A stretch of 59,429 nucleotides of DNA, filler included, from a bacterium (GTDB taxonomy: Bacteria; JAJRZV01), in assembly GCA_024275095.1 (NCBI GenBank). It is 3 parts of 3 records of this genome, joined end to end, with 100 filler letters (N's around TTAATTAATTAA, not from the genome) between each part and the next. Parts side by side here need not be neighbours in the genome. Positions count along the whole stretch, not along the records: positions 31,071 to 54,403 come from JAJRZV010000032.1; 2 more parts are not named here. One strand, written 5' to 3'. Shown here one piece after another: positions 21,096 to 55,818 of the stretch. A program made the translations under genes and the position numbers. Under the pieces are notes generated by a model. It saw only the letters and a program-made list of their open reading frames with translations, searched no databases and was not told the DNA's origin. Position 1 is the first letter of the stretch, and every line of letters starts with the position of its first letter.

Positions 21096-22372
21096 AGCAG
21101 CGAAATCTCGGCGCCAGGGTCACCCTGTTAGCTACTGCCCTCATCGCAACAGTAGCCTCTACAACCCTGCTTTATTCATGCTCGCGAAACGTTCAAACCA
21201 GTGAAGTAAAAAAGGTGAAATACCACTGCCCCATGCATCCTACATATATATCTGATAGACCAGGAAAATGTCCCATATGTGGCATGAACCTTGTCCCCAT
21301 AGAAAAAGAAACGCCAGAAGAAAAATATCCTCCAGGAACTGTCGTCATCTCTCCTTACAAAGAACAACTTATCGGGGTGAGATATTCAAAAGTCCAATAC
21401 GTGGATTTAACCAAAGAAATACGCACCGTAGGAATTGTTAAGCCCGATGAACGCCGTACATATCACGTGCACGTCAAGGTCAGCGGATGGATAGAAAAGC
21501 TTTACGTAAACTACCGCGGTGCCATGGTTAAAAAAGGACAGCCATTGTTCACACTTTACAGCCCCGAACTTCTTTCTTCCCAGGAGGAGTATCTCATCGC
21601 GCTCAACACGTGGGAAAAGCTAAAAGACTCGCCAGTACCGGGGGTACGAGAAGATGCTCGCAGGCTCCTCGAAGCTGCCAGGGAAAGGTTGCTCTTGTGG
21701 GACATCACCCCGGGACAAATCCGGGCGCTCGAAAGAAAGAAGCAGCCCTTTGTAAAGGTACCCATATATTCCAAATACACAGGCTATGTGATCTGGAAAA
21801 ACGTAATCGAAGGAATGTTTATCAATGCGGGCACACATATTTACGAAATCGCAGACCTCTCGCGCGTATGGGTGATGGCAGACATTTACGAAAGCGAAAC
21901 GCCTTTCGTGAGCCTGGGAGATGAAGCGGTTATCACCTCGAGCTACGACCCTTCACTGAAACTTACCGGGACAGTCGATTATATTTATCCTTACCTTGAC
22001 GAAAAAACCCGCACGCAAAAAGTTCGACTGACCATCGTCAACGATGATGAGCTCACGTTACGACCGGAGATGTACGTAAACGTCATCCTCAAAATTCCTC
22101 TCGGCCAGCGTCTTGCTGTCCCTGTGGATGCAGTAATGCGTACCGGCAAGCGGAACATAGTATTTGTGAGAGCGAAGGAAGGAACTCTGGTACCGAGAGA
22201 AATCCGGGTTGGTCCTGAAGTAGGCGATTATCTCATCGTACTTGATGGTCTGGAAGAAGGAGATGAAATCGTCACATCTGCCAATTTCCTGATAGATTCA
22301 GAGAGCAAATTAAAGCTCGCCATCGAAAGCATGGGTGGAGAAAAGGGTGCTCATAAAACCCGTGGTCAGTGA
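21092..22372 (+). CDS. cusB: Heavy-metal RND periplasmic adaptor
   Basis: YHCPMHP...CPICGMNL metal-binding domain; GWIEKL, LYSPEL, IADLSRVWV, NFLIDSES. Confidence 0.9.
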   Translation: MKQRNLGARVTLLATALIATVASTTLLYSCSRNVQTSEVKKVKYHCPMHPTYISDRPGKCPICGMNLVPIEKETPEEKYPPGTVVISPYKEQLIGVRYSKVQYVDLTKEIRTVGIVKPDERRTYHVHVKVSGWIEKLYVNYRGAMVKKGQPLFTLYSPELLSSQEEYLIALNTWEKLKDSPVPGVREDARRLLEAARERLLLWDITPGQIRALERKKQPFVKVPIYSKYTGYVIWKNVIEGMFINAGTHIYEIADLSRVWVMADIYESETPFVSLGDEAVITSSYDPSLKLTGTVDYIYPYLDEKTRTQKVRLTIVNDDELTLRPEMYVNVILKIPLGQRLAVPVDAVMRTGKRNIVFVRAKEGTLVPREIRVGPEVGDYLIVLDGLEEGDEIVTSANFLIDSESKLKLAIESMGGEKGAHKTRGQ

Positions 22373-22407
22373 GAGTTTAAGCCTTAACCGACCTGCAGGA
22401 GGATGCG

Positions 22408-25400
22408 ATGCCTGAAAAGACTTCTCAAAGAGAAGGTTTTATAGAACGAATTATTGAATGGTCATCAAATAACAGGTTTATCGTTTTTGCATTTACCGCT
22501 TTCGGAATTTTTTACGGCATCTACACATTAAAACACATTCATCTCGATGCCATCCCTGATCTTTCAGATGTACAGGTAATTGTCTATTCTGAATGGCCCG
22601 GGCGTTCTCCGGACCTGGTCGAAGACCAGATTACGTATCCCATCGTAACAGCTCTTCTTGCAGCCCCGCGTGTAAAGGTGGTGCGAGGATACTCTTTCTT
22701 TGGGTACTCGTTTGTGTACGTTATATTTCAGGACGGCACCGACATGTACTGGGCGCGCTCACGTGTGCTTGAGTACATGCAAGAAGTACAGGGAGAACTC
22801 CCACCGGGCGTTACTCCTCAACTGGGACCCGATGCAACCGGCGTGGGCTGGGGGTTCCAGTACGTGCTCGTGGATCGGACAGGCAAGCACAACCTCGCCG
22901 AGTTGAGGTCTTTCCAGGATTGGTACCTGAGATACTGGCTCGAATCGGTCCCGGGAGTTGCGGAAGTCGCTGCAGTCGGAGGATTTGTCAAGCAGTACCA
23001 GGTAGAGCTGGACCCGAACAAACTGCTTGCTTACAAAATACCCATATCGAAGGTGGCCGAGGCCATCAGGCGTTCCAACAACGACGTTGGCGGGAGGGTT
23101 ATCGAAATTTCAGGCACTGAATATTTCGTCAGGGGCAGGGGATATATCCGATCAGTAAAAGATATAGAAAACATCCCTGTAGCACACACTCCTGACGGGA
23201 CGCCAGTACTTGTAAAAGATCTCGGTACTGTTCACCTTGGTCCCGACATACGCCGCGGTACAGCAGACTTTAACGGAGAAGGAAATGTGGTCGGTGGCAT
23301 TGTGGTCGTCCGTTTCGGCGAGAATGTTTACAAGGTAATACAAAACGTTAAAAAGAAAATCGAAGAAGTAAAGGATTCACTTCCCGAGGGCGTGGAGCTC
23401 ATCCCTGTATACGACCGATCAGAACTCATCGAAAGGGCCGTGGACACTCTCTACGAAAAGCTTATCGAAGAAAGCGTGATTGTGAGTCTCGTCTGCATTG
23501 GCTTTCTCTATCATCTCCCCTCGGCGCTCGTGGCCATCATCATGCTGCCACTGGCCATCCTGTTCTCGATGATCCTCATGCACACACTCAATATCACGGC
23601 AAATATCATGTCACTGGGCGGCATCGCCATAGCCATCGGGGCGATGGTTGACGCGGCCATAATAATGATTGAAAACGCACACAAGTATCTTGAACACGAT
23701 GCGGGAAAGAAACCTCGGCGGGAAATCATTACAGAGGCAGCAAAGCTGGTGGGAAGGCCGCTTTTCTTTTCCCTGCTGGTCATCACCGTCTCATTCCTGC
23801 CGGTATTCACACTGGAGGCTCAGGAAGGAAGGCTGTTCAAACCCCTGGCATATACCAAAACCTTTGCCATGTTCTTTGCGTCCCTGCTGTCCATTACGAT
23901 CGTGCCTGTACTCATGCACATTTTCATTCGGGGCAAAATTACACCCGAAGGAAAAAATCCCGTATCGCGTTTTCTCATAAGAATTTACGAGCCGCTGTGT
24001 GCCCTTTCCATTAAGTATCGCTGGTACTTCATAACCGCTGCAGTTGCCATTTTCGGAACATCCATGTTCCTGTTTAAATTCATCGGCTCGGAATTCATGC
24101 CCCCTCTCAACGAAGGTTCAATACTTTACATGCCTACAACGCTCCCGGGAATATCCATAACAGAAGCGGAGAGATTGCTAATTGTGCAGGACAGGCTTTT
24201 CAAAACCTTTCCTGAAGTTGACACTGTATTTGGAAAGGTGGGCCGCGCGGACACCGCCACAGATCCCGCCCCCCTTTCCATGATTGAAACAACGGTGGTG
24301 CTCAAGCCCGAAAGTGAGTGGCCGTGCAGGGTGAAAAAAAACTATCCCCACGCTCCTGGTTTTATGAAACCCCTGCTCAAAAAAGTCTTCGGCACCTGCC
24401 GCAAAATCACATGGGAAGAACTCATCAACGAAATGGACTCCAAGTTCAAATTCCCCGGAGTGACCAATGCGTGGACCATGCCCATCAAGGCACGAATCGA
24501 CATGCTTACAACAGGTATACGCACTCCCGTGGGCATCAAGATCTACGGGCCGGACCTTAAAACAATTCAGCAAATCGGAGAGCAAATAGAAACGGTCATC
24601 CGAAACGTACCCGGAACTCGAAGCGTGTACGCAGAGCGCGTTGTGGGAGGGTACTTCGTGGATTTTATAATTAACCGCCAGGAGGCGGCTCGATACGGAC
24701 TCACAATAGAAGATGTGGAAAACATCATAGAAACAGCTATTGGAGGCATGAAAATAGATTTTACGATCGAAGGGAGAGAGCGGTACTCCATAAACATCAG
24801 GTATCCGCGTGAACTGCGTGAAAACATAGAAGAACTCCAGCGCGTGCTCGTGCCCATACCTTCCGGAGCACAGATTCCTATCGGTCAGTTAGCGAAAATT
24901 GAAATCACAACCGGGCCACCCCTTATCAAGGACGAAAACGGTGCGCTCACCGGCTGGGTATATATAGACGTTGCGGGCAGAGACATCGGCTCCTTTGTAA
25001 AAGAAGCGAAAAAGCTCGTGAAAGAAAAGGTCAAGTTGCCCCCTGGCTATTACCTCGCCTGGTCCGGCCAGTATGAATACATGCTGAGAGCCAGGGAAAA
25101 GCTGAAACTCATTCTGCCGATAACATTACTCATCGTGTTCATGCTCCTCTACTTCAACAAGAAAAACATTACCGAAACTTTTATCGTGATGCTCGCTGTA
25201 CCATTCTCACTGGTAGGAGTAGCATTAATTCTATGGCTTCTCGACTACAACCTTTCAGTGGCTGTGTGGGTGGGAATCATTGCGCTTCTCGGCGTCGACG
25301 CGGAGACAGGAGTGATAATGCTGGTGTACCTGGACGAGGCTTACAGCAAACGCGAATCAGAAGGTCGTATGAATACCTTTGAGGACCTGAAAGAAGCGGT

Positions 25401-25653
25401 AATGTACGGTGCTGTACAGCGCATCAGGCCGAAAATTATGACCGTCAGTGCCATTGTCGCAGGGTTGTTGCCCATCATGTGGTCTCACGGAACAGGCGCG
25501 GATGTGATGAAAAGGATAGCAGCACCGATGATTGGAGGCATCATCACCTCTGCAATGATGGAACTTCTCGTCTATCCTGCCATCTATACCGTATGGAAAT
25601 ACAGAAGAATTAAAAAATTAAACAACTCTAAAACCACAGGAGGTGCGACATGA
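22408..25653 (+). CDS. cusA: CusA/SilA Cu(I)/Ag(I) RND efflux permease
   Basis: LDAIPDLSDVQVI, GPDATGVGW, GAMVDAAI; Met triad in LYMPT, PLSMIET and WTMPI; RIRPKIMT. Confidence 0.95.
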   Translation: MPEKTSQREGFIERIIEWSSNNRFIVFAFTAFGIFYGIYTLKHIHLDAIPDLSDVQVIVYSEWPGRSPDLVEDQITYPIVTALLAAPRVKVVRGYSFFGYSFVYVIFQDGTDMYWARSRVLEYMQEVQGELPPGVTPQLGPDATGVGWGFQYVLVDRTGKHNLAELRSFQDWYLRYWLESVPGVAEVAAVGGFVKQYQVELDPNKLLAYKIPISKVAEAIRRSNNDVGGRVIEISGTEYFVRGRGYIRSVKDIENIPVAHTPDGTPVLVKDLGTVHLGPDIRRGTADFNGEGNVVGGIVVVRFGENVYKVIQNVKKKIEEVKDSLPEGVELIPVYDRSELIERAVDTLYEKLIEESVIVSLVCIGFLYHLPSALVAIIMLPLAILFSMILMHTLNITANIMSLGGIAIAIGAMVDAAIIMIENAHKYLEHDAGKKPRREIITEAAKLVGRPLFFSLLVITVSFLPVFTLEAQEGRLFKPLAYTKTFAMFFASLLSITIVPVLMHIFIRGKITPEGKNPVSRFLIRIYEPLCALSIKYRWYFITAAVAIFGTSMFLFKFIGSEFMPPLNEGSILYMPTTLPGISITEAERLLIVQDRLFKTFPEVDTVFGKVGRADTATDPAPLSMIETTVVLKPESEWPCRVKKNYPHAPGFMKPLLKKVFGTCRKITWEELINEMDSKFKFPGVTNAWTMPIKARIDMLTTGIRTPVGIKIYGPDLKTIQQIGEQIETVIRNVPGTRSVYAERVVGGYFVDFIINRQEAARYGLTIEDVENIIETAIGGMKIDFTIEGRERYSINIRYPRELRENIEELQRVLVPIPSGAQIPIGQLAKIEITTGPPLIKDENGALTGWVYIDVAGRDIGSFVKEAKKLVKEKVKLPPGYYLAWSGQYEYMLRAREKLKLILPITLLIVFMLLYFNKKNITETFIVMLAVPFSLVGVALILWLLDYNLSVAVWVGIIALLGVDAETGVIMLVYLDEAYSKRESEGRMNTFEDLKEAVMYGAVQRIRPKIMTVSAIVAGLLPIMWSHGTGADVMKRIAAPMIGGIITSAMMELLVYPAIYTVWKYRRIKKLNNSKTTGGAT

Positions 25654-26366
25654 AATACGGAGCAAAGCACGCAGCAGTAACAGGCATTATTTTAAGTGCG
25701 GTTCTGTTTCTTTTTCCCCAGGGTGCAAAAGCCTGCGAACAATGCGGTCAATGCGGTGGTGCGAAGAAAGCAAAAGCAGAAGTCTCGGGCAGGGTCACTG
25801 ACCCGGTCTGCGGAATGAAGGTGGACCCGAAAACCGCGGAGAAAAAGGGACTGGTCGCAAAATACAGGGGCCGAAAATATTACTTCTGCATGAAAGCGGA
25901 CCTTGAAAAGTTCAAGAAGAACCCGGAAAAGTATCTCAAGAACCAAAAGGGAATGCAGCACGGCGGCATACATGAGCGCATGATGCAGAATTACGCGGAA
26001 GTTATCAAACTCGAAGGGTTGCTTTTACAGACAAAAAACGCTTCCAGGGGAGTCAAAATTGCTGATGCGTTCGTGAAAAAGGCTCTAGAATTCGTAAACA
26101 GGATGAACGAGATGACCAGAACCAATCCGGGCATGATGAAAAAGGACTCAATGATGGCACAACATTACAAGCAGTTGAAAAAACTCCTCAGGACATTGAC
26201 GGCTCTGAACACACAATTCAAAGCCGCACTTCAAAAACCCAGGCAGGAAAAACTCTTTGCACAGCTTAAAACAACTGCAGCGGAATTCGTGAAACACATG
26301 AAAAAGTGTCACGGGATGATGATGAAGCACATGGGCGCAGGCAAAGGGATGATGAAAGGGCACTGA
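25650..26366 (+). CDS. Exported YHS-domain protein with Met/His-rich helical C-terminus
   Basis: Signal peptide, CEQCGQC, DPVCGMKV...YYFC...FKKNPEKY, HMKKCHGMMMKHM. Confidence 0.8.
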   Translation: MKYGAKHAAVTGIILSAVLFLFPQGAKACEQCGQCGGAKKAKAEVSGRVTDPVCGMKVDPKTAEKKGLVAKYRGRKYYFCMKADLEKFKKNPEKYLKNQKGMQHGGIHERMMQNYAEVIKLEGLLLQTKNASRGVKIADAFVKKALEFVNRMNEMTRTNPGMMKKDSMMAQHYKQLKKLLRTLTALNTQFKAALQKPRQEKLFAQLKTTAAEFVKHMKKCHGMMMKHMGAGKGMMKGH

Positions 26367-26395
26367 ACATCTACAACTTACGGAGGAAGGAAGAA

Positions 26396-28612
26396 ATGAA
26401 AAACCACGACGACGAAAAAAAACACGCAGGTAATATCCACGAAGACCATACAAAAGAACACACGGACTCAGACAGTTGTTGTACAGGAGAGGAAAACGGA
26501 GGTGAAAAAGGCACCGGATCACATTCCCGTGAACACATGATGCACGGGCACCACGAACACCACGAACATCACATGCCGGAAGATACCGTTCATCATGCAG
26601 ACCATGTCCACAAGCATCCTGGACACGAGATGCCAGACCATCACATGAAACACGCTCACGGTGATCATCATGCCCACATGGTGCAGGATTTCAAGCGGCG
26701 GTTCTGGGTCTCTATCATACTCACAGTGCCTGTACTTCTTCTATCTACTATGATTCAGCGGTTCCTTGGACTTGGTAGTGCTCTCAGATTCACAGGAGAT
26801 GTCTATGTGCTGTTTGCCTTTTCATCCGCAGTCTTCTTCTACGGCGGTTACCCATTTCTCAAAGGCATATTTAATGAACTGAAAAAAGCGACTCCGGGAA
26901 TGATGACCCTTATCGCCGTGGCCATATCCACCGCGTATTTCTACAGCAGTGCTGTGGCATTCGGGCTTCCCGGTAAAATGTTTTTCTGGGAACTGGCGAC
27001 CCTTATAGACATTATGCTCCTGGGGCACTGGATCGAGATGAGATCCGTTATGGGTGCTTCACGTGCCCTTGAAGAGCTCGCGCGCCTCATGCCATCAGAC
27101 GCTCACAAGCTCATGCCTGACGGAAGCGTAAAAGATGTTCCGCTGAACGAACTTGCTACAGGAGATAAGGTGCTTGTTAAACCCGGTGAAAAGATTCCGG
27201 CTGATGGAGATGTGATTGAAGGCGAAACATCGGTGAACGAGGCAATGCTCACGGGCGAATCAAAACCCGTGTCCAAAAAGCCCGGGGCACAGGTTATCGG
27301 TGGATCTATTAATGGAGAAGGTTCCATCGTGGTCGCGGTAACCAAGACAGGTAAAGCCTCCTTCCTCTCTCAGGTCATTGAGCTGGTAAGGGAAGCGCAG
27401 GAAAGCAAATCAAGAACCCAGGATCTTGCCAACCGCGCGGCCATGTGGCTCACGCTCATCGCCCTCGGAGGCGGAGCCATAACACTTCTTGTATGGCTTA
27501 CCATCGGAGGAAAAGACTTTGCTTTTGCACTTGAGCGCACTGTCACGGTCATGGTCATTACGTGTCCCCATGCTCTTGGACTTGCGGTCCCGCTTGTTGT
27601 AGCAGTCTCAACAGCCCTCGCGGCAAAAAGGGGACTGCTCATACGTGACCGGGCTGCATTCGAACAGGCAAGAGGTGTTCAGGCCATTGTCTTCGACAAA
27701 ACAGGAACCCTTACGGAAGGCAACTTTGGTGTGACTGACGTCGTTGTCATGGCACCTGACATAAACGAAAAAGAACTGCTTCAATATGCAGCATCAGTAG
27801 AAGCACACTCCGAGCATCCCATTGCCCAGAGCATTGCTGCCTCAGCGGATGCGAAGCACCCTGTCGAAAACTTTCGAGCCATTCCAGGGAAAGGTGCCGA
27901 GGGACGTGTTCATGGCAAAGATGTAAAAGTTGTCAGTCCCGGGTATCTGAAAGAAAAAGGAATTCAGATCTCCGACGAACGAATCGAACCGCTCCTGTCC
28001 CAAGGCAAGACCGTGGTGTTCGTACTTATTGAAAACCAACTCGTGGGCGCCATTGCCCTTGCAGACATCATCAGGAAAGAATCCAAACAGGCCATCGCAA
28101 TGCTCAAGAACATGGGCATCAGATGCATGATGCTTACAGGCGACAACAAACAGGTCGCCCGATGGGTCGCTGAGGAAATCGGACTTGATGAATACTTTGC
28201 TGAAGTCCTTCCACATGAAAAAGCTGAGAAAATCAAAGAAGTACAGGCCCGGGGACTTGTTGTGGCCATGACAGGAGATGGAGTTAACGACGCTCCTGCT
28301 CTTGCCCAGGCCGACGTAGGCATTGCTATCGGCGCGGGTACGGATGTTGCGGTAGAGACTGCGGATATTGTACTTGTTCGGAGCAACCCACTTGACGTGG
28401 TCAGTATCGTGTTTCTGGCCAGGGCCACGTACCGCAAAATGGTGCAAAATCTTGCATGGGCAACGGGTTATAACGCTTTCGCAATACCTCTTGCCGCGGG
28501 AGTTCTTTTCAAATGGGGAGTATTGCTCAGTCCGGCCATGGGGGCAGTGCTCATGTCTCTCAGCACGGTCATCGTCGCTATCAATGCACGCTTTTTGAAA
28601 ATAAAAAACTGA
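26396..28612 (+). CDS. copB: Copper-translocating P1B-3 ATPase (start set at ATG 26396)
   Basis: His-rich N-terminus, TGES, CPH, DKTGT, SEHP, GDGVNDAP, GYN, MSLS. Confidence 0.95.
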   Translation: MKNHDDEKKHAGNIHEDHTKEHTDSDSCCTGEENGGEKGTGSHSREHMMHGHHEHHEHHMPEDTVHHADHVHKHPGHEMPDHHMKHAHGDHHAHMVQDFKRRFWVSIILTVPVLLLSTMIQRFLGLGSALRFTGDVYVLFAFSSAVFFYGGYPFLKGIFNELKKATPGMMTLIAVAISTAYFYSSAVAFGLPGKMFFWELATLIDIMLLGHWIEMRSVMGASRALEELARLMPSDAHKLMPDGSVKDVPLNELATGDKVLVKPGEKIPADGDVIEGETSVNEAMLTGESKPVSKKPGAQVIGGSINGEGSIVVAVTKTGKASFLSQVIELVREAQESKSRTQDLANRAAMWLTLIALGGGAITLLVWLTIGGKDFAFALERTVTVMVITCPHALGLAVPLVVAVSTALAAKRGLLIRDRAAFEQARGVQAIVFDKTGTLTEGNFGVTDVVVMAPDINEKELLQYAASVEAHSEHPIAQSIAASADAKHPVENFRAIPGKGAEGRVHGKDVKVVSPGYLKEKGIQISDERIEPLLSQGKTVVFVLIENQLVGAIALADIIRKESKQAIAMLKNMGIRCMMLTGDNKQVARWVAEEIGLDEYFAEVLPHEKAEKIKEVQARGLVVAMTGDGVNDAPALAQADVGIAIGAGTDVAVETADIVLVRSNPLDVVSIVFLARATYRKMVQNLAWATGYNAFAIPLAAGVLFKWGVLLSPAMGAVLMSLSTVIVAINARFLKIKN

Positions 28613-41386: not shown

Positions 41387-43078
41387 TCATTCCCATTTAA
41401 ACCTTGTTTCTGCTAACCGATACATTTGCCTCCAAACAAGCCGGTTGAACAATACCACAACCGCGGCCATTGTAAATGTAGAAAGAAGTACCCCTGCTAC
41501 ATCCCCCTTGAGAGTGGCTTCAGTAATCATTGCCCCCAGTCCCTGAACCTTCAGCGTTGTGTTTCTGAATACAAAATATTCAGCCACAATGGTGGCATTC
41601 CAGGCTCCTCCCGCGGCCGTAATAAGTCCTGTGGTAAGATCCTTAAAGACAAAGGGAATGGTTATTTTTCCCCATCGATGGAGGCCTGATATTTTGTACA
41701 TTTTTACAAATTCTTTTAATTATGTGGGGATTGTAGAAGCCCCTGCAAGCACATTGAATAAAATATACCACTGGCTGGAAAGAACAAGAAGTACGAGAGC
41801 ATTGAACTCATGGGGCAGGTGCAGACGATGAGAGAACATAATAATGATAGGGAAAAAGGCTGTTGCGGGGATGGATGCGAGGATTTGTATAACCGGTTGT
41901 ATTCGGCGTGAGAGGCGCTTGCGCATTCCAGCGTATATTCCAAGTGGCAGGGCCAGAGCCAGGGAGATGAACAGTGCTCCCAGCACTCTTGCCAGGCTTG
42001 AGAGTGCTGCTCCAGGCAACTGTAAAACGAGAGAAATATTGACCCCTCTCAGCAGTTCAAAGGAATAGTAGAGCACTGCAAACAACATCCCCGCCAGAGA
42101 GATGATGAATATCCAGGGGATGGAACCGCTCTCTCGAGGCATGCTTTTAAAACGTGTACTTTGTTCTATAATCCACTGGCTCAGCCACCCAGCTGCATCG
42201 CGTGCAAGTGAAAAGAGTCTCGAGTGTTGAACAGCGTCCAGAATGAACGATTCACTTTTTTCTTCTTCGCCGTGCGTGAGGTCAGGTTTGAATTTAGAAA
42301 CCCATGCAAAAACGGGTCGCCACACGATCGCGTCCGTTAATACAATAACGATAAGAATGAAGAGCACACCACATGCAACTTCTACCATTTTACCCTGTTG
42401 GGATGCAGTATAAATGTAGGCTCCTATGCCCGGCATGATGTAACTTCGATCGCCGATGACAAGCATCTCGCAGGCCATGAGGAAGAACCAGCCTCCTGCA
42501 ACAGATAGCATGGCGTTCCAGGCGAGTGAGGGGACGGCAAAAGGAAGTTCTATTTTGAGAAATTTCATGAAAGCATTGAGTTTAAATGCGTCGGATGCCT
42601 CGCAAAGATATTCTGGTACGCTTTTAATGGAAGAATAAAAAGCGAAGATAAGGTTCCATACTTGGCCTGTAACAATCAACACTATGGACGAAAGTTCAAG
42701 GGCCAGGCGTGAACCTCCAAAAAAGGATGTGAAGGATACCACAACCGCCGGCATGAAGCTGAGTACAGGAATGGATTGGAGCACGTCCAGTAAGGGTACA
42801 AGAACCCGTTCCATGATCCTGGAGTGGGCTGCTGCATACCCGTATGTAAGCGCTATCCCCAGACTGATGAAAAGGGCGATAAATATTCGTGATATAGAAT
42901 AAAGCCCGTATAGAGGAATGTATTTGAAGTCCAGTGAAATAAAAGGTTCGTGCCGGGCTTCTCCCCATCCTCCTGAAGCACTGAACAGTAGGGCCACGAG
43001 AGAAACAATCAGAAATATAACAGCGGCATCTACAGTGATACCGGTTAAAATTTTTGCTGATTGGCGTTTGCCAGGCAT
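41387..43078 (-). pseudogene. NitT/TauT-family double-domain ABC permease with a premature in-frame TAA
   Basis: LDVLQSIPVLSF, AGGWFFLMACE, QWYILFNV; reads GASTIPT*LKEFVKMYKI in one frame (TAA at 41722-41720) and continues to AAGGAWNATIVAEY. Confidence 0.8.
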
Positions 43079-43152: not shown

Positions 43153-43833
43153 TCAGGAAATTACGTCACTACTTCTGGACTTTGCTAATGCTTCCTTCCA
43201 CTCGTAAAAGTCAATTAACTGCTGCAGCTTTTTGGGCCGCAATATGAAGATCATCCTCTCTTTCACCTGAATGTACCCGAGAGTATGGAGTCTGTACAGT
43301 ATAGATTTGATAAGTGGTGCATCTGCTGCCACACGTGACTCCAGTTCATCCAGGTCAAGATGAACCTTGACACCAGGAGCCTCTCCGCCTGCTTCCCGTG
43401 CAAGCTGTAAAATTACATTGATGATCTGGCTTTCACGGTCTCCCAGCAAAAGATTTTCCAGTATTTGGTCGGTACGCCATAACCGATGAGCCATTTTTCG
43501 AAGAATTTCTATCGCCACGTGGGGGTAACTGCGAATCACGTTTTCAAATTGATCCTGGCTGATTTCAATTAAAATAGATTCCGACCTTGTTACAGCTGTT
43601 GCACTCCTGGGTTTCCCGGTAAGCATGGCCATTTCGCCAAAAAATTCTCCCTTTGTGAGAATGGCGATATTCTTTTCTTTTCGTCCGGAGCGTTTTTTTA
43701 TTTCTATCTCACCTTCATGAATGATGAACATGGTGTTACCTTTTTCTCCTTCTTTGAACACGAGAGTTTGTGGAGGGTAAATTTTACCGTGCCGTTCAAT
43801 AAGCTCTTCGATATTCCTTTTACGAACACTCAT
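43153..43833 (-). CDS. Crp/Fnr-like cyclic-nucleotide-binding regulator
   Basis: FKEGEKG, GEFFGEMAML, PRSATA; C-terminal winged-helix-like segment. Confidence 0.85.
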   Translation of the reverse strand: MSVRKRNIEELIERHGKIYPPQTLVFKEGEKGNTMFIIHEGEIEIKKRSGRKEKNIAILTKGEFFGEMAMLTGKPRSATAVTRSESILIEISQDQFENVIRSYPHVAIEILRKMAHRLWRTDQILENLLLGDRESQIINVILQLAREAGGEAPGVKVHLDLDELESRVAADAPLIKSILYRLHTLGYIQVKERMIFILRPKKLQQLIDFYEWKEALAKSRSSDVIS

Positions 43834-43875: not shown

Positions 43876-44676
43876 TTATGTATATATCAGTGTGCCTACA
43901 TTTTTGTTTTCAAGGGCCAGCGTAAGATTCCCCCTCACCAATCCGTTTACGATTCGAATGCTTTTAATATGAATTGCATTTTTCATTAACTCCAGGACCT
44001 TTCTTTCCACCACAAGGTCTGGCAGGTTCATTTTTACAAGTTCATCCACACTGATTCGAGGTATAAATGTAGCTGCAGGATTTTTTTTGGGGTCATCGGT
44101 ATAAAGTCCATCTTCGTCTTTTACAAATATGACATTTTTTGCCCCCAGCACTTCACCTATAAGGAATGTGCCCACATCAGTGCGACACTCTGGAATTTGC
44201 CCTTTTGTAGGAGGTTCCTCCCAGTATTCATACGGTGGCATTCCGGAGATTATGGGGGTGCAGCCGGTGTTAAGATACAGGCCTATAATGTCAAATGTCT
44301 CTTTGGGAATGTAAACGCCGCCGTGGGGTGCTAAAAGTAACTGCAACATGCGGGCGTTTTGCCGTGAAACCGAAGTTCCCAACTTTGCGAGTACACCGGG
44401 TGGCATTCCGAGTTCTACTGCCAGGGCATAGGCATGTCTTGAACGAGTGCCTCCGCCTACTGTAATGATAAGCCTCCTTTTTTTCATAAGCCGGGCCAGC
44501 TCTTCCACCAGTGGATAAACCGCGGCACGTCCCCTGTCCATAATGGACTGTCCACCGATTTTCACCACTGTTACATCCGGGAATATCTTTACAGTATTTT
44601 TACGATGCAGAAACTGAAGCAGTGCATCGCTTTTTCGCGCGTTGGTGTGAATGCTTTTTTTTCTATTTTCAGCCAT
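43876..44676 (-). CDS. mosB: Mo/W storage protein beta subunit (amino-acid-kinase fold)
   Basis: KIGGQSIMDRGRAAVYPLV, GTRSRH, SGMPPY, RTD, IFVKDEDGLYT, ATFIPRISVDE, VNGLVRGNLT; these closely match A. vinelandii MosB as recalled. Confidence 0.88.
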   Translation of the reverse strand: MAENRKKSIHTNARKSDALLQFLHRKNTVKIFPDVTVVKIGGQSIMDRGRAAVYPLVEELARLMKKRRLIITVGGGTRSRHAYALAVELGMPPGVLAKLGTSVSRQNARMLQLLLAPHGGVYIPKETFDIIGLYLNTGCTPIISGMPPYEYWEEPPTKGQIPECRTDVGTFLIGEVLGAKNVIFVKDEDGLYTDDPKKNPAATFIPRISVDELVKMNLPDLVVERKVLELMKNAIHIKSIRIVNGLVRGNLTLALENKNVGTLIYT

Positions 44677-45523
44677 GGGCGGTGATCACTGTTCCCGCAT
44701 TTTTCCCCTGAAGCACACGCTCAAGCATTTGAGGCTTAAGTCCGTTGATAATGTACACTTTTTTACAGTTTCTTGCTTTGAGCAGAACCTGAAGCATCTG
44801 GCGTTCAACAGGAAGTTCATCGTCGCTCCAGGAAAGCATTTCTTTTGCTGTGATTTTTTTGACAGGTTTTTGGGGCGCCCCCGAAACGTGATCTGGCCTG
44901 TATACGCCGTCAATGTCTTTGATCAGAATGCAACGCTTCATTCCGAACGTTTCAGCAATAGTAAGTGCACCGGTATCAGACCCATGCAAAGGTTCCTTTT
45001 GTGAGGGATATTCCCAGTAATGATAAGGCGGCATTGCTACTATTACGGGTATCGCCTTGGATGCCAGAAAGAAGGGGAGTTTTTCAAATTCGTCTTTGGT
45101 TACTCTTATACCGCCGTACGGAGCGAGTAAGCATTGGATGAGCAGGGCATTTTGTTCATGGGCGGCTTCTGCAATGGCTGCAAGTGCACCTGTAGGGAGA
45201 CCCAGATCCATTCCAACTGCGTAAGTATGACGCTCACGGATGCCCCCGCCTGTTGCCACAATTATGCGGTGCCTTGTTGCAAGCCGTCCGATGGTTTTGA
45301 TCAGCGGCAATATTGCATTTTTCCCCCGGTCTATAACGCTGCCCCCCCCAATTTTCAGCAAGTTTGCATCAGGTAAAATGCGTCTTTCACGGGGTTGGTG
45401 AGTCTTTTGCTGAACGGTTTTACTCACCAGAGATTCCTTCATGAGTGTACTGGCAATATGGAACCGGGACGGTGTTTTTTCTATTTCGATGGTGCCTGGT
45501 GATTGTTTTTTCAAAGAGCACAC
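44669..45523 (-). CDS. mosA: Mo/W storage protein alpha subunit
   Basis: HIASTLMKESL, KIGG..IDRG..AILPL, GMDLGLPTGALA, EQNA, PPYHYWEYP, HGSDTGA; its stop overlaps the mosB start (ATGGCTGA). Confidence 0.85.
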   Translation of the reverse strand: MCSLKKQSPGTIEIEKTPSRFHIASTLMKESLVSKTVQQKTHQPRERRILPDANLLKIGGGSVIDRGKNAILPLIKTIGRLATRHRIIVATGGGIRERHTYAVGMDLGLPTGALAAIAEAAHEQNALLIQCLLAPYGGIRVTKDEFEKLPFFLASKAIPVIVAMPPYHYWEYPSQKEPLHGSDTGALTIAETFGMKRCILIKDIDGVYRPDHVSGAPQKPVKKITAKEMLSWSDDELPVERQMLQVLLKARNCKKVYIINGLKPQMLERVLQGKNAGTVITAHG

Positions 45524-45532
45524 GGGGAGATT

Positions 45533-46648
45533 TTACGAAATCGTCGAATAAGGAGCTACTTTTATATCAGTTTTAACGTTATCACCAATGTACTCGAAAA
45601 CACCCAGAGTATTTCCGTCTTTTTGAGGCACCACATGTACAAATCGAGGGTCTATGCTGATTTCGACACGTTGTCCAGTGTTTACCGTTTTATTCCCCAT
45701 CCACGACTCCTTTGATACAAGTGCCGTGTGAGCAAGCCGATACACAATTCTTGTATATCCGGGACATTCTGCTACCTCTTCAACCACAGCTTCTGTGCCT
45801 TTTCCGGTGATGCGGTATATACCTTCGGGGCGGATGAATACGATAGCCGGACCTTCGGGTATATCTGTATTGACGGGGATGTTAATATCTCCTGAACAGA
45901 ACACACCTGTTTCACCAGAGCGCTTTACATAACCAGAGATGATGTTTGAGTATCCTACCAGTCGTGCCACTTCCCACGTGGCTGGTTTTTGGAGAATATC
46001 TCCGGGAGAGCCCTCCTGGACGATCTGGCCGTTTATCAATACACCAATCCTGTCGGAGAGAACCGCTGCTTCCTCGAAGTCATGTGTTACAAATATAGTG
46101 GTAACATCAAGCTGTTTCTGGATGCGTCTGAGTTCTCCTCTCAGCTCCTCTCTGGCGGTACGATCCAAAGCATTGAACGGCTCGTCCAGCAGAAGAAGCA
46201 CCGGGTCCGTCACCAGGGCTCGAGCGAGGGCAATGCGCTGGCTCTCTCCACCGCTGAGGCCGTGGACGCTTCTGTAGAGCAGGTGTGAAATCCCGGTGAG
46301 TTCAGCGATTTTTTTTATTTTCTGGCGCACAAGTGACTCGGGGAGCTTTTTTACCCTCAACCCAAAGGCAATGTTGTCGAATACGGTGAGGTGAGGGAAC
46401 AGCAGATTTTTTTGAAACACCATTCCAACCCGCCGGCGTTCAGGTGGGAGATTTGACGAGTCCGCACCAGCGATAATGACAGTTCCCTGTTTTTCCCTGC
46501 GCAGACCGCTGATGAGTTCGAGGAGTACGCTTTTACCTGCACCCGAGGGTCCCATTATGGTGTAAAATTCGCCTTTTTTCAGCTCGAGACTTAACGGTCC
46601 AAGTTGAAAAGAATCTACCCGGTATACGAGTTTTTCAATGCGGAACAT
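45533..46648 (-). CDS. wtpC: Tungstate/molybdate ABC transporter ATPase
   Basis: GPSGAGKS, LFPHLTV, LSGGESQR, LLLDEP, VTHD; C-terminal TOBE-like region. Confidence 0.85.
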   Translation of the reverse strand: MFRIEKLVYRVDSFQLGPLSLELKKGEFYTIMGPSGAGKSVLLELISGLRREKQGTVIIAGADSSNLPPERRRVGMVFQKNLLFPHLTVFDNIAFGLRVKKLPESLVRQKIKKIAELTGISHLLYRSVHGLSGGESQRIALARALVTDPVLLLLDEPFNALDRTAREELRGELRRIQKQLDVTTIFVTHDFEEAAVLSDRIGVLINGQIVQEGSPGDILQKPATWEVARLVGYSNIISGYVKRSGETGVFCSGDINIPVNTDIPEGPAIVFIRPEGIYRITGKGTEAVVEEVAECPGYTRIVYRLAHTALVSKESWMGNKTVNTGQRVEISIDPRFVHVVPQKDGNTLGVFEYIGDNVKTDIKVAPYSTIS

Positions 46649-47468
46649 TCTTTTTTTCCCTCCATACTATTATTCTCATTCCGATAAACACCACCAGCGT
46701 AAGCAGTATCAGCACCGTGGCCACTGGTCGAGCATATGCAAGGCCATACGATTCAAATCTCTCGTACACAAGCACAGGTGCTGTCATGGGATGATATGCG
46801 AGCACCACCACTGCACCAAACTCGCTGATGCCTCTTGCCCACATCATGAGCATGCCTGATGCAATATGCCTTTTGACCAGCGGTAGCGAGACTTTCCAGA
46901 AGACCTGCCATGGTGATGCTCCCAATATTCGGGCTGCCTTTTCCAGATTTGGATCGAGCAAAGAAAAGCCTTCTCTTACCTGGTTTATGAGAAAAGGAGC
47001 ACTGACGAACAGCATGGCAATTACGATACCTGGAACGTCTCCTACAAAGTGAATGCCCAGGCTGCTGAAGAAACGCCCGGCGAAAAAGCGCTTGCCAAAC
47101 ACAAAAAGCAGAGCGACTCCAGCAGCAGTGTGGGGGATGATCATGGGTAGGTCTACAAATGCACTGATAACGCTTTTGCCTGGAAAGTGACGCCGTGCGA
47201 GCAGATATGCCAGTGGCACGCCGGTTAATGTTGCTATAAGGGTCGCGTAAAGAGCCGCGCGGAATGTGAGCCCGATAGACTGCATCACTTCTTTTTCGCG
47301 TGCGGTTTCCAACAGTACCTGTGGAGTGTTTGCTGCTACAAGCTTGGCCAGTGGAATTACCAGAAATATGACAATAAGTGCACCAACTCCGGCAAAAATG
47401 CCCGTAAGTAATTTTTCTCGTGATAATAAAGAGACGCCGACAACCCCGTTTTTGCTGGTCAGGCTCAC
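46635..47468 (-). CDS. wtpB: Tungstate/molybdate ABC transporter permease
   Basis: VDLPMIIPHTAAGVALL, FVSAPF, MMWARGISEFGAV, YHP. Confidence 0.88.
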   Translation of the reverse strand: MSLTSKNGVVGVSLLSREKLLTGIFAGVGALIVIFLVIPLAKLVAANTPQVLLETAREKEVMQSIGLTFRAALYATLIATLTGVPLAYLLARRHFPGKSVISAFVDLPMIIPHTAAGVALLFVFGKRFFAGRFFSSLGIHFVGDVPGIVIAMLFVSAPFLINQVREGFSLLDPNLEKAARILGASPWQVFWKVSLPLVKRHIASGMLMMWARGISEFGAVVVLAYHPMTAPVLVYERFESYGLAYARPVATVLILLTLVVFIGMRIIVWREKKNVPH

Positions 47469-48406
47469 TGGGATATCACATGAATTCGTAGTGCTTCTGG
47501 CATGAAGTCACGGTCTGGAGATACCGGAGGCACGAGAGGTTCTTGAAAACTGTCTTTTAAAATTTCCTGCCCCTTACTACCGATAAGGAGTTTGATGAAC
47601 TCCACAGCGGTCTGATAATGGGGGGCACCTTTTACGATGGTAATTCCGTAAACAATAGGTTTGCCTCGGACTTTCAGGGTTTGTTTGCCGTCTGTAAGTT
47701 CCAGTACAGCTTCACTGTAAATGTTTTTTAGCGAAGGGTTGCCCAGGTCTATTTCTTCCGGGAGGGTTACATACTGGAAACCGTGTTGTCTGGCCAGTGA
47801 AAGGTAGGTAAAGTGGTAATCCAGGTCACCTGATTGTGCGAGCGGGAGCAGATCTGTTTCTTTTGGCCTCAAGTTGCGCAGTGACATTCCGTCCAGAAGT
47901 TTCCGGTAGAGCCCTTTGAGGCCGTAGTACCTTTCTGCCAGCTTCCATACGAGCAACGTTCTGTATCCACAGGGATCGAGAAAAGGGTCTGACCGCCCGT
48001 ATTCAACACTTTTTTTCAGTAGAATTTTGTACCAGTTGTTCCCGTTGATTTCGCTCGCATATCGGGCTCCTTTGCTAATGGCGATAACCATGCGGTTTCG
48101 TGCAAAGTAAAGATTCCACACTGCGTATTCGGGCTTTAATATTTCGTCTATGACGGTATAGTCAGACACGGCTACGATATCAGCCTGTTTCGCCAGTTCT
48201 GCTACTTTTCTGGCGGCCAGACGGCTGCCTGATGCCTCCCGTAGAACTTCGCAGCCCGGGTGCTTCTCCTCGAAAACCTTTTCCAGCCGTGAGAATGGTA
48301 CTGTCAGACTACCGGCATGAAATATAATAAGTTTGCATTTGTCTCCTGCGTAAGCGAAAAAATTTGCGAGCAGGAAAATCAGAAAGACAGATAGATTGTG
48401 CTTCAT
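47465..48406 (-). CDS. wtpA: WtpA-type tungstate/molybdate-binding protein (start set at ATG 48406; ORF track extends to 48457)
   Basis: Signal peptide; IFHAGSL, EASGS, SDPFLDPCGYR (Asp ligand), RPKETDL (Glu ligand), YLSLARQHG, GKPIVYGITI. Confidence 0.9.
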   Translation of the reverse strand: MKHNLSVFLIFLLANFFAYAGDKCKLIIFHAGSLTVPFSRLEKVFEEKHPGCEVLREASGSRLAARKVAELAKQADIVAVSDYTVIDEILKPEYAVWNLYFARNRMVIAISKGARYASEINGNNWYKILLKKSVEYGRSDPFLDPCGYRTLLVWKLAERYYGLKGLYRKLLDGMSLRNLRPKETDLLPLAQSGDLDYHFTYLSLARQHGFQYVTLPEEIDLGNPSLKNIYSEAVLELTDGKQTLKVRGKPIVYGITIVKGAPHYQTAVEFIKLLIGSKGQEILKDSFQEPLVPPVSPDRDFMPEALRIHVISQ

Positions 48407-48419
48407 GAGGCAGAACTCT

Positions 48420-48479
48420 ATCATAGGGTTCTTCTCAGGGGAAGGTAAAATTGACAAATAATGAGCATATGCTTATAAT
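48420..48479. promoter_or_regulatory. Back-to-back promoters with a palindromic operator
   Basis: Plus strand: perfect TTGACA (48451-48456) - 17 bp - TATAAT (48474-48479), overlapped by ATGAGCATATGCTTAT (48461-48476, 14/16 palindromic). Minus strand: TTTACC (48449-48444) - 18 bp - TATGAT (48425-48420). Confidence 0.75.
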
Positions 48480-48500
48480 GAGTACCAGGGAGGAGAAAAA

Positions 48501-49031
48501 ATGCCCAGACCGAGAGTCCCACGCTGTGTTGAGGAGGAGCCTCCGGCCAAGGCTTTCAAACCGGCTGGTATTCCTGCTATTGCCCTTGAGCGCGTAATTC
48601 TTGAGCTGGACGAATTTGAGGCATTGAGGCTTGCTGATTTGGAGGGCCTTTATCAGGAAGACGCGGCTCAACTGATGGGAGTATCCCGCCAGACGTTTGG
48701 TCGTATCCTGGAATCGGCACGACATAAGGTGGCCGAGGCTCTTGTTGAAGGCAAAATGTTAATTATGAAAGGAGGGTCAGCCATGGGTGAGGTCAAAAGA
48801 GTATTTCAGTGCAGTGATTGCGGTCATGAGTGGGAAGTTCCGTTTGGTACGCCACGGCCGGGTCGATGTCCTGAATGTGGCGGTGTAAACCTTCATCGTG
48901 CAGGTGCACCGGGCTGGTGTCGTGGTCACGGCGGCAGGTTCCGTCGGCGCTGGCGCTGGCGGGGTGGCGGACACGGATGGCATCACGGTGGAGGAGGGTG
49001 GCGCCACGGACACGGTCATGGCGGTGCGTAG
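48501..49031 (+). CDS. DUF134 putative DNA-binding protein with Zn ribbon and Gly/His/Arg-rich tail
   Basis: MPRP..FKPAG, EFEALRLAD, QEDAA..MGVSRQTF..IL..AR.KVA.AL; CSDC..CPEC; GGHGWHHGG tail. Confidence 0.9.
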   Translation: MPRPRVPRCVEEEPPAKAFKPAGIPAIALERVILELDEFEALRLADLEGLYQEDAAQLMGVSRQTFGRILESARHKVAEALVEGKMLIMKGGSAMGEVKRVFQCSDCGHEWEVPFGTPRPGRCPECGGVNLHRAGAPGWCRGHGGRFRRRWRWRGGGHGWHHGGGGWRHGHGHGGA

Positions 49032-52761: not shown

Positions 52762-53496
52762 ATGACATTATCAGCAGATGATCTCAAACGTTACAACCGG
52801 CAGATGATGATGGCAGGGTGGGGCGAGCAAATTCAAGAAAAACTTAAAAATTCAAAAGTATTTATCGCAGGAGCAGGTGGACTTGGTAGCCCTGTGTCCA
52901 TCTATCTGGCTGTGGCAGGTATTGGTTCCATCACAATTGTGGATGCAGATAAAATTGAGCTCTCGAACCTCAACAGGCAGATTCTTCATCCCAATGAGCG
53001 TATAGGAGTTGAAAAAGCACGCTCTGCGGAACAGACCCTGAAAGCGATCAATCCTGATGTGGAGATAAAGGGAATTGTCGCGTACATTGACGAAAATAGT
53101 GTTGCTGACCTTATCGGTGATGCTGACCTCATAATGGATTGTCTGGACAATATGGATACGCGGCACATTATAAATAAATACGCAGTTAAAGCTGGGATAC
53201 CTCTGGTACACGGAGCCATCTGGGGTTTGACAGGGCAGGTGACTTTTATCAAGCCGGGAGAGACCCCGTGCCTCAAATGTCTTTTCCCGGAATCTCCACC
53301 GAGAGAAACATTTCCGGTTGTGGGAGCAACACCTGGTGTGATTGGCTGTATTCAGGCCATGGAAGCCATTAAGTATCTCACGGGTATAGGGGAAAACCTC
53401 TGCGGCACATTGCTCGTTATGGATGGAGAAACCATGCGTTTCGATCATCTGAAGATAAGACGAGTGCCTGACTGCCCACACTGTGGAAATTCATAG
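52762..53496 (+). CDS. MoeB/ThiF/HesA adenylyltransferase
   Basis: RYNRQ, GAGGLG, SNLNRQ, DCLDN, PCLKC, QAMEAIK, CPHC; AGGAGG RBS. Confidence 0.92.
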   Translation: MTLSADDLKRYNRQMMMAGWGEQIQEKLKNSKVFIAGAGGLGSPVSIYLAVAGIGSITIVDADKIELSNLNRQILHPNERIGVEKARSAEQTLKAINPDVEIKGIVAYIDENSVADLIGDADLIMDCLDNMDTRHIINKYAVKAGIPLVHGAIWGLTGQVTFIKPGETPCLKCLFPESPPRETFPVVGATPGVIGCIQAMEAIKYLTGIGENLCGTLLVMDGETMRFDHLKIRRVPDCPHCGNS

Positions 53497-54503: not shown

Positions 54504-54740
54504 ATTATCAACACGGACGGAACAGGCTACACCGTGCTCACCGACGGTACAGGAAGCAACGAGTGGCCAGAATGGTCGCCTGACGGTCGGTATATACTAT
54601 TCTCCGGGCGTCGGGAGACAGACGACTACGACCTCTATCTGCTTAATGTGGACACGGGACGCATCCAGCGGTTGTTTCACACACCAGCAAATGAGAAGTG
54701 TCCTTCGTGGTCCCGTACTTATCTTACGCCGGAGAACTGA
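54504..54740 (+). CDS. C-terminal fragment of a TolB-like PD40 beta-propeller protein
   Basis: Open from the gap; PEWSPDGRYILFS and CPSWS repeats. Confidence 0.75.
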   Translation: MINTDGTGYTVLTDGTGSNEWPEWSPDGRYILFSGRRETDDYDLYLLNVDTGRIQRLFHTPANEKCPSWSRTYLTPEN

Positions 54741-54741
54741 G

Positions 54742-55818
54742 ATGGGTCTTAAATGCGGTATTGTAGGTTTACCCAACTCGGGGAAATCCACGCTGTTCAA
54801 TGCACTCACAGGTGCAGGGGTGAGGATGGACACTTTTCCTTTCACCACTGTTGATCCAAACGTGGGAGTGGTGGAAGTGCCGGATCAGCGATTGAAAAAA
54901 ATCGCCGAGCTTGTACGAACGCCAAAAGTAACCCCAGCGACTGTACACTTTGTTGACATCGCAGGTCTGGTGAAAGGCGCGAGCGAGGGTGAAGGTTTGG
55001 GTAACGCCTTTCTCTCACATATCCGCGGAACAGACCTGATAGTGCATGTGGTGCGATGCTTCGCAGATGAGGACATACCGCACCTGATGGGGCAACCCAA
55101 TCCCCACAGAGACATCGAGGTGATAGAGCTGGAGCTGTTTTCTTCAGACCTTGAGGTAGTGGAAAGGCGATTGGAGAAGGTAGAAGTGCTGGTGAGGAAA
55201 GGGGTAAAGGATGTATCACACGAGGTAGATGTTCTACGCGCCCTTCGAGACCACCTCAGTCGAGGAGAGCGCCCGCCACAGGAAGTAATAAGAGAATTGC
55301 CTTCGGACCTCCACATTATCACAGCACTTCCTGTGATATTTGTGGCCAATGTTTCAGGAAAAGACGAAGAAGCTCAATGGGTGGAGTCTCTCAGCGATGA
55401 GGCTCAACGTCGCGATGCGCCGCTTGTCACCATCAATGCCAAATTGGAGTGGGAACTGTCGGATATGGAACCGGAAGAGAGAAAAGAATTTATGGCCGCT
55501 TACGAAATACCATTCTCAGGCGTGGAAGAACTTTCGGGCGCCGCTTACAAGTTACTGGACCTTATAACCTTTTACACTCACGCCGGCGGAAAGGAGCTAA
55601 GGGCCTGGCCCGTTAAAAGAGGCACCACGGCTGTAAAAGGAGCGGGAATGATCCATTCGGATTTTGAAAAGGGCTTCATTCGAGCAGAGGTCATCGCATA
55701 CAATGATTTCATTTCTGCAGGTGGGGAGCACGGCGCTCGCGAGAAAGGATTCGTGAAAACTGTTGGACGCGATTACCTGATTCAGGATGGCGATATTATC
55801 ACATTCAAGACGAGGTGA
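54742..55818 (+). CDS. ychF: Ribosome-binding ATPase YchF (start set at ATG 54742)
   Basis: GIVGLPNSGKST, FVDIAGLVKGASEGEGLGN, IHSDFEKGFIRAE, QDGDII. Confidence 0.96.
   Translation: MGLKCGIVGLPNSGKSTLFNALTGAGVRMDTFPFTTVDPNVGVVEVPDQRLKKIAELVRTPKVTPATVHFVDIAGLVKGASEGEGLGNAFLSHIRGTDLIVHVVRCFADEDIPHLMGQPNPHRDIEVIELELFSSDLEVVERRLEKVEVLVRKGVKDVSHEVDVLRALRDHLSRGERPPQEVIRELPSDLHIITALPVIFVANVSGKDEEAQWVESLSDEAQRRDAPLVTINAKLEWELSDMEPEERKEFMAAYEIPFSGVEELSGAAYKLLDLITFYTHAGGKELRAWPVKRGTTAVKGAGMIHSDFEKGFIRAEVIAYNDFISAGGEHGAREKGFVKTVGRDYLIQDGDIITFKTR

Follow-up and report, generated by a model that had tools for sequence, protein, structure and literature searches.

The stretch of bacterial DNA analysed here (the window; 59,429 nucleotides, from assembly GCA_024275095.1) carries five co-directional open reading frames (ORFs) on the minus strand, which span positions 43876–48457 and encode a tungstate/molybdate importer of the ATP-binding cassette (ABC) type, WtpABC, together with two proteins from the family of molybdenum storage proteins (MoSto). 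The periplasmic tungstate/molybdate-binding protein WtpA is encoded at 47465–48406, the ABC permease WtpB at 46635–47468 and the ABC ATPase WtpC at 45533–46648. These are followed by gene 4 (44669–45523), which has a GTG start and encodes a MoSto-family partner subunit of 284 residues, and by gene 5 (43876–44676), which encodes a MoSto beta-like subunit of 266 residues; position 43876 is the end of the gene 5 stop codon. The longest frame of wtpA (47465–48457) comprises 330 residues from a TTG at 48457. The ATG at 48406 corresponds to residue 18 of this frame and is followed by a signal-peptide-like N-terminus. wtpA and wtpB overlap by 4 nt (GTGA), with the GTG start of wtpB sharing these nucleotides with the wtpA stop. 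wtpB and wtpC overlap by 14 nt, and GGAGGG precedes the wtpC ATG as a predicted ribosome-binding site. Between wtpC and the start codon (GTG) of gene 4 lies a gap of 9 nt, and genes 4 and 5 overlap by 8 nt (ATGGCTGA). This reading of the junctions agrees with the initial annotation, which had listed five same-strand genes with the same overlaps and gap. The five genes, possibly joined by a sixth, probably form a single transcription unit.

WtpA scores 302.8 bits on the TIGR03730 model, above the cut-off of 242.75, and 343.4 bits on NF003196, slightly under the cut-off of 355. In a search of solved structures, it matches the WtpA/ModA chain of Archaeoglobus fulgidus (2onk_E) with an E value of 1.8e-79. 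The motifs DPCGYR and PKE occupy residues 161–166 and 198–200 of the 330-residue frame. D161 and E200 align with the Asp of DPCGYR and the Glu of SME in 2onk_E, and a single offset of 28 maps both residues onto the published residue numbers; the Asp and Glu ligands that had been read from these two motifs are present in the protein. According to Hollenstein et al., these two carboxylates reportedly complete the octahedral coordination of the oxyanion. WtpB (Pfam BPD_transp_1) scores 294.5 bits on NF040839, under the cut-off of 340, and WtpC (Pfam ABC_tran) scores 302.2 bits on NF040840, under the cut-off of 440; in both cases the Wtp model is still the best-scoring one in NCBIfam. The WtpC match covers residues 1–282 only, and no TOBE model in Pfam or NCBIfam matches the C-terminal extension. 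The importer shares the A-B-C gene order, the Asp and Glu ligands and a WtpA above the TIGR03730 cut-off with WtpABC of Pyrococcus furiosus and A. fulgidus (PDB entries 2onk, 3cij and 3cg1). It differs from these systems in its bacterial host, in the scores of WtpB and WtpC under the NCBIfam equivalog cut-offs, in the C-terminal part of WtpC without a TOBE match and in an operon that runs on into the putative storage genes. WtpA is not rare among bacteria: 2124 homologues were found at E<=1e-30, many of them named WtpA in bacterial metagenome-assembled genomes (MAGs); Chloroflexota, Nitrospirota and Desulfobacterota are among the groups represented by NCBI names. For two of the homologues (P0475 and P0477; 449–456 residues) the precomputed Pfam list shows PF00174 (Oxidored_molyb) as an additional domain, and these would be binding proteins fused to a molybdoenzyme-type domain.

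MoSto forms an (alpha-beta)3 cage into which over 100 atoms of Mo or W are loaded with the help of ATP. For both gene 4 and gene 5 Pfam shows AA_kinase only. Among solved structures, gene 4 matches MoSto alpha (4.9e-50), MoSto beta (2.1e-46) and uridine monophosphate (UMP) kinase (2.5e-5), and gene 5 matches MoSto beta (1e-75, 257.7 bits), MoSto alpha (3.8e-50) and UMP kinase (9e-7); set against MoSto, the UMP kinases in the PDB are the poorer matches by 40 to 70 orders of magnitude. On the pyrH model TIGR02076 (cut-off 158.05) gene 4 scores 48.8 bits and gene 5 62.9 bits, and on TIGR02075 (cut-off 243.9) the scores are 16.1 and 36.7 bits. The comparison with MosA, MosB and PyrH that had been proposed as a check thus places both proteins closer to MoSto than to any kinase. 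The amino-acid-kinase fold and the nucleotide-site motifs are common to the pair and to the archaeal type of UMP kinase (PyrH), from which the pair differs in its pyrH model scores and in its gene context. It had also been predicted that such genes would be labelled uridylate kinase: three NCBI-sourced homologues are indeed named 'uridine kinase', but many names from the JGI read 'molybdenum storage protein', and the prediction holds in part only.

K39 of gene 5 aligns with Lys-beta42 and M146 with Met-beta149 of the Azotobacter vinelandii protein, and neither residue varies among 28 homologues. In gene 4 the lysine of KIGG (K57) and a conserved arm at the N-terminus are retained. Its His168, which is part of the PPYH motif and is nearly invariant in the clade of gene 4, lies at the position of H156 of A. 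vinelandii alpha. PDB entry titles name the MoSto variants K-beta42S and H-alpha156A (6h6w for H156). Brunle et al. reportedly identified the beta-ATP site as the working site in 2019, with Met-beta149 as the proposed gate and the alpha N-terminal arm as a lid.

The AlphaFold model of gene 4 has a mean predicted local distance difference test score (pLDDT) of 79.1, with low confidence for the N-terminal 34 residues and for loop 166–178. It resembles the MoSto alpha and beta chains alike (Foldseek E values of 1e-22 to 1e-23, TM scores of 0.75–0.88), and UMP kinases are found at an E value of 1e-11. A heterodimer model of gene 4 and gene 5 reached a score of 0.83, with 0.00 for the best of three controls; a mark of 0.83 is reached by 58 of 80 solved complexes and by two of 110 mismatched pairs. 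The runs have at least 83% of their contacts in common, the partner pLDDT is at least 87 and the interface takes in the N-terminal arm of gene 4 (residues 19–49). The model supports binding of the two proteins to each other, with the proviso that, as the complex of A. vinelandii MoSto has already been solved, the pass may reflect likeness only.

The family to which the pair belongs is large. At least 7352 homologues of gene 5 were found at E<=1e-20 among the 8000 candidates scored. For gene 4, with homologues clustered at 50%, the search gave 43 clusters at E<=1e-30, a number that rises to 309 at E<=1e-10; the nearest has 51% identity. We sampled 80 loci from species-representative genomes and 80 from metagenomes among the matches listed (more exist), and all counts of loci given below refer to these 160. 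Two MoSto-like genes are present in 107 of them. Because long frames of a spurious kind arose when ORFs were called in high-GC loci, trees were built on segments cut by tblastn (258 MoSto-like segments, with nine dropped for internal stops); an apparent fusion in locus L015 was an artefact of such a frame. A FastTree phylogeny of 141 segments from the 80 genome loci and the two window proteins, and an IQ-TREE mixture-model tree of 49 rows hand-picked from the four FastTree clades, both give the same four clades: type I partners, type I beta-like subunits, type II first genes and type II second genes (the labels type I, type I-a and type II were coined in this analysis). Gene 4 falls among the type I first-gene partners (type I-a) together with loci L001 and L065. 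Gene 5 falls among the type I beta-like subunits, again with L001 and L065 and with single-gene forms from Bacillota. Since both window subunits group with the same partners, the pair moves as a unit.

Typing subunits by single-sequence bit scores against PDB chains was misleading, with a type II second-gene protein giving beta 238 > alpha 191 while the profile of its clade prefers alpha, and these scores were replaced by clade profiles. The type II first-gene profile scores 416 for beta and 234 for alpha, and the type II second-gene profile 328 for alpha and 307 for beta, which places A. vinelandii MoSto in type II. By these profiles and trees the window pair is assigned to the type I branch, an uncharacterised lineage distinct from the A. 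vinelandii protein.

One clade within the beta-like group consists of MoSto-like loci that have a single gene and no partner nearby (L017, L028, L030, L033, L037, L042 and further loci from Bacillota). Each of the eight Bacillota-named genomes among the 50 host genomes searched (see below) carries AOR-family genes, and the single-gene proteins may form homomeric cages.

The coupling of uptake to storage proposed in the initial annotation is well founded in one tightly packed string of genes, but it is not special to the window. Part of a molybdenum/tungsten (Mo/W) ABC transporter lies in 71 of the 160 loci; for the 47 loci that are flanked by 4 kb or more on each side, the count is 34. ModA is present in 46 loci and a TupA-like protein in five. 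Of 30 ModB-like matches examined, 25 had an upstream ORF by rule, and 20 of these ORFs are ModA above the cut-off (TIGR01256). The linkage of an importer to a MoSto-like pair is a general principle among the matches listed, and only the WtpA version is rare. A survey for wtpABC-mosAB synteny had been suggested; tblastn with the window proteins detected WtpA in none of the 160 loci, a weak match in L060 being ModA by NCBIfam, and none of the 80 genome and 80 metagenome loci, which were searched for a closer relative with such a string, was nearer than 62% identity. The window is the only complete wtpABC-pair string in the 161 places examined among the matches listed.

A second Wtp-MoSto string, broken by assembly, is probably represented by L003. 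In this Nitrospirota contig WtpC is followed by a 192-residue protein of no assigned family, a CbiQ-like membrane protein and then the partner and beta-like subunits, in that order; the WtpC is a C-terminal half (243 bits on NF040840) in which TOBE domains, lacking a match in the window WtpC, are present, and a WtpA lies at the end of another contig in the same MAG. In L065 the order is beta-like subunit, partner subunit, CbiQ-like protein and TupA-like protein, the last scoring 217.5 bits (E 2e-64) on NF041772, under the cut-off of 400 bits. A CbiQ-like polytopic membrane protein of about 400–460 residues stands beside the pair in 63 of the 160 loci (L003:1251–2639, L065:1523–2707 and 61 further loci; PF02361, 4e-7). 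The match to CbiQ is weak, with about 33 bits on TIGR02454 against a cut-off of 112. In one protein of 732 residues (P0251) a membrane domain with 34% identity to that of L065 (E 6e-42) is fused to a MoSto-like domain (residues 464–730). The CbiQ-like membrane protein appears to be a third, as yet undescribed, component of the type I systems. Pairs linked to modABC, found in Myxococcota, Bacteroidota, Gammaproteobacteria and others, follow the same principle of importer plus pair as the window; they use ModA, mostly with a CbiQ-like membrane gene, whereas the window has WtpA and lacks that gene. In the closest relative among the matches listed, a gene for a '23S rRNA-intervening sequence protein' (PF05635) lies between the two MoSto-like genes (L001:9540–9908).

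Whole-genome searches covered 50 of the 80 genome loci, which were chosen to spread over lineages and not at random; as the hosts are mostly MAGs, absences are soft. The nitrogenase family PF00148 was above the cut-off in three of the 50 host genomes, and the AOR family PF01314 (tungsten-type) was found in 19 and not found in 31. In the five nearest genomes among the matches listed PF00148 was not found; AOR was found in three, WtpA in one, TupA-like proteins in two and ModA in two. The L001 genome has six AOR-family matches, and in the L065 genome, which has an AOR gene, the TupA-like protein is the only Mo/W binding protein found. The hosts of the relatives thus favour a store that serves enzymes other than nitrogenase. 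The suggestion that the system supplies tungstoenzymes rather than nitrogenase has support in so far as nitrogenase is rare and AOR more frequent in these hosts. The sub-branch leans mildly to tungsten; these data do not decide the metal. In the window itself, a Pfam scan of the 52 ORFs found no nitrogenase, AOR or molybdopterin-oxidoreductase family, in line with the lack of nif genes noted at the outset.

We propose that the five genes are an uptake-plus-storage operon for tungstate/molybdate that uses an uncharacterised lineage of the MoSto family, a reading that we consider likely. WtpA would capture the oxyanion in the periplasm by a site whose octahedral coordination is completed by Asp and Glu, and WtpB and WtpC would import it. 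In the cytoplasm, ATP bound at the beta-like subunit of a MoSto-like hetero-oligomer would drive the oxyanion into a protein cage, in which it would condense into polyoxometalate clusters. Storage of this kind would keep the free oxyanion low and build a reserve for pterin-cofactor enzymes. The proposal builds on the observed gene order and coupling, on the family assignments and on the conservation of the Lys and Met of the beta site; cage assembly, ATP-driven loading and the identity of the stored metal would follow by analogy.

The pair has much in common with A. vinelandii MoSto (MosA/MosB; PDB entries 2ogx, 4f6t and 6gu5, among others): the fold, the family, two adjacent paralogous genes, a beta-type subunit with the ATP-site Lys and the aligned Met, a partner subunit with an N-terminal arm and the PPYH His, and a heterodimer, which for the window pair is predicted. 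It differs in being type I, in gene 4 apparently lying outside the alpha clade and in forming part of an importer operon, with no nif genes among the window ORFs. The same role, a cytoplasmic reserve of Mo/W oxyanions for pterin enzymes, is proposed (PMC11980592) for the Mop/Tub TOBE-domain stores such as the tungsten storage protein of Eubacterium limosum. The fold of Tub is unrelated to that of the window pair, and Tub binds eight tungstates per hexamer without ATP, whereas a MoSto-type cage condenses polyoxometalates with ATP.

Several observations weigh against the proposal. His156, Glu129 and His140 of A. vinelandii alpha are cluster ligands, as Kowalewski et al. are said to have reported in 2012, and one of the three is kept in gene 4 (His156 as His168); Glu129 aligns with Thr142 and His140 with Phe152. 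With the profile of the gene 4 clade, A. vinelandii beta reaches 297 bits and alpha 225 bits, and the trees join this clade to the type I beta-like clade (SH-aLRT 97), a topology that would imply an origin of the type I partner subunit separate from that of MosA. A single alpha clade was nevertheless not rejected by the approximately unbiased test (delta lnL 9.5, p 0.261), for a group that was named after the tree had been seen. Of the 'alpha and beta signatures' of the initial annotation, the latter stands for gene 5, which is clearly beta-like; for gene 4, a possible orthologue of MosA, 'alpha signature' is too strong and 'MoSto-family partner subunit' is the safe description. No ribosome-binding site is visible for the GTG start of gene 4. 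The CbiQ-like gene was not found in the window, so that the window system may differ in its working from the majority of related systems. Finally, cage formation and metal loading would be carried over by homology from a type II protein, because no type I pair has been characterised.

Of the possible cargoes, molybdenum for ordinary molybdoenzymes (nitrate reductase, Mo-dependent formate dehydrogenase and others), with WtpABC replacing ModABC as in many organisms, is a reasonable possibility, although we hold it short of probable. ModA is the usual neighbour of the family (46 loci, with 20 of the 25 ORFs tested above the ModA cut-off), WtpA homologues are common in many bacterial phyla and the only characterised member stores Mo in vivo (PMC6448029). 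On the other hand, the closest relatives of the pair among the matches listed lean to Tup/Wtp neighbours and not to ModA. A store for tungsten, in which WtpA imports tungstate preferentially and the cage of a non-diazotroph holds polyoxotungstate for tungstoenzymes (AOR, W-dependent formate dehydrogenase and BamB), is possible but somewhat doubtful. It would suit a binding protein of WtpA type and not of ModA type, the tungstate-type parts next to the nearest relatives (TupA-like in L065, WtpC in L003), the TupA-like genes in five loci, the pairing of AOR with a lone TupA-like protein in the L065 genome and the six AOR matches of L001, and the frequency of AOR over nitrogenase in the host genomes (19 against three of 50). 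A. vinelandii MoSto, moreover, has been crystallised with polyoxotungstates (titles of PDB entries 2ogx and 7zse), which it is able to hold according to PMC6294228. The preference for tungsten over molybdenum in the initial annotation is nevertheless not supported as stated: WtpABC is described in PMC11980592 as carrying both oxyanions, the usual partner at MoSto loci is ModA, AOR was not found in 31 of the 50 host genomes, the Pfam scan revealed no tungstoenzyme gene in the 59-kb window and W is not discriminable from Mo by sequence at the WtpA site or in the cage. The most specific form of this reading, a dedicated ATP-driven tungsten store in which a type I cage co-expressed with WtpABC in a deeply branching non-diazotroph would hold polyoxotungstate for tungstoenzymes, is rather unlikely.

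Two further readings dispense with a store. Genes 4 and 5 might encode an ATP-driven cytoplasmic acceptor that acts with a membrane component, taking the oxyanion off the transporter or passing it to cofactor synthesis. The CbiQ-like protein beside the pair in 63 loci, its fusion to a MoSto-like domain in P0251 and the position of the window pair directly after the transporter genes would all be in keeping with this; the window itself lacks the CbiQ-like gene, the beta-site residues for pumping into a cage are kept and no test result speaks against cage formation, and we regard the acceptor as improbable. That the two genes encode ordinary enzymes of the amino-acid-kinase family (UMP kinase or a related small-molecule kinase) which merely adjoin a transporter is very improbable indeed. 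The AA_kinase assignment in Pfam and the 'uridine kinase' names of NCBI-sourced homologues point that way, but the pyrH scores lie far under their cut-offs, the UMP kinases of the PDB are by far the weaker matches, and the gene pairing and the recurrent Mo/W transporter neighbours make a nucleotide kinase a poor fit.

An uptake-plus-storage operon of this kind would bear on how the MoSto family is viewed. The literature searched, which was covered in part, treats MoSto as a curiosity of a few nitrogen fixers, although a diazotrophic host is a matter of customary association and not of structure. It yielded no description of a linkage between MoSto homologues and Wtp, Tup or Mod genes, or of their spread outside diazotrophs; key structural papers in subscription journals and supplements lay outside the scope of that search. 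The present counts describe MoSto-like pairs that are numerous (at least 7352 proteins), that occur mostly outside diazotrophs (nitrogenase family in three of 50 host genomes) and that are usually tied to importers of Mo/W (in 34 of the 47 loci whose flanks were long enough, among the matches listed). They fall into two lineages, only one of which has ever been studied. The window and its relatives suggest that a MoSto-type metal store serves far more than nitrogen fixers. A dedicated tungsten store, if true, would be the first cage-type system to store tungsten physiologically, and the MoSto family as a whole would then be a Mo/W reserve general to anaerobes and soil bacteria and not an accessory of nitrogenase. 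The compact five-gene cassette allows a direct test of W versus Mo loading in an unstudied lineage, and MoSto-type cages are also of interest to chemists as templates for polyoxometalate synthesis.

A gap of 42 nt separates gene 5 from a downstream gene for a CRP/FNR-family regulator (43153–43833, minus strand; Pfam cNMP_binding, 7e-24; 78.5 bits on the CRP model NF008732, below the cut-off). The promoter-like sequence TTGAAC-17-TATAAT stops 7 nt short of the ATG of the regulator gene, and the terminator scan found no terminator-like site between the two genes. The regulator gene may be the sixth of the operon or may be transcribed separately (leaderless). On the other side of the operon, a divergent control region (48407–48500; promoter scan and reading of the sequence) separates wtpA from a gene for a DUF134 DNA-binding-type protein (48501–49031, plus strand; PF02001, 1.3e-27; Zn_ribbon_8, 7e-6). 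This 94-nt spacer contains a sigma-70-like promoter with 12 of 12 matching positions that faces the DUF134 gene. A perfect 10-bp palindrome, AGCATATGCT (within window positions 48440–48500), which is flanked by CATTAT repeats and overlaps this promoter, is a candidate operator. The promoter scan gave 13 sites where 11.6 were expected and the terminator scan eight where 8.3 were expected; as both counts are at chance level, the scans are no evidence by themselves and are used descriptively. No Rfam family, the Moco riboswitch included, reached its gathering score anywhere in the window. The DUF134 protein, divergent from wtpA, combines a zinc ribbon with a C-terminal tail of unusual composition, in which Gly, His, Arg and Trp abound. 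A homologue adjoins a MoSto-like gene in L080, and in L071 the distance between the two is 5 kb (two of the 160 loci); the protein is a candidate regulator.

The moeB homologue that had been placed about 4 kb away corresponds to a MoeB/ThiF-family gene at 4.3 kb (52762–53496, plus strand), for which the best NCBIfam matches are MoeB models, all under their cut-offs. On the minus strand, at 41387–43078, an ABC permease with two BPD_transp_1 stretches (41720–43078) is followed by a separate ORF of 104 residues (41387–41701) that carries the C-terminal part of another BPD_transp_1 domain; the reading frame of a fused double permease may be broken here. The YchF GTPase of the window (54646–55818, plus strand) is at most 57% identical to any other of 5.8 billion proteins, about 50% identical to those of many phyla and 36–50% identical to those of five candidate genomes compared with it, a divergence that suggests that the window comes from a poorly sampled lineage. 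A heavy-metal efflux cluster on the plus strand (20013–28612) comprises an outer-membrane factor, a CusB/HlyD-type adaptor with a heavy-metal-binding domain, a 1081-residue pump of the resistance-nodulation-division (RND) type, a YHS-domain protein and a P-type ATPase.

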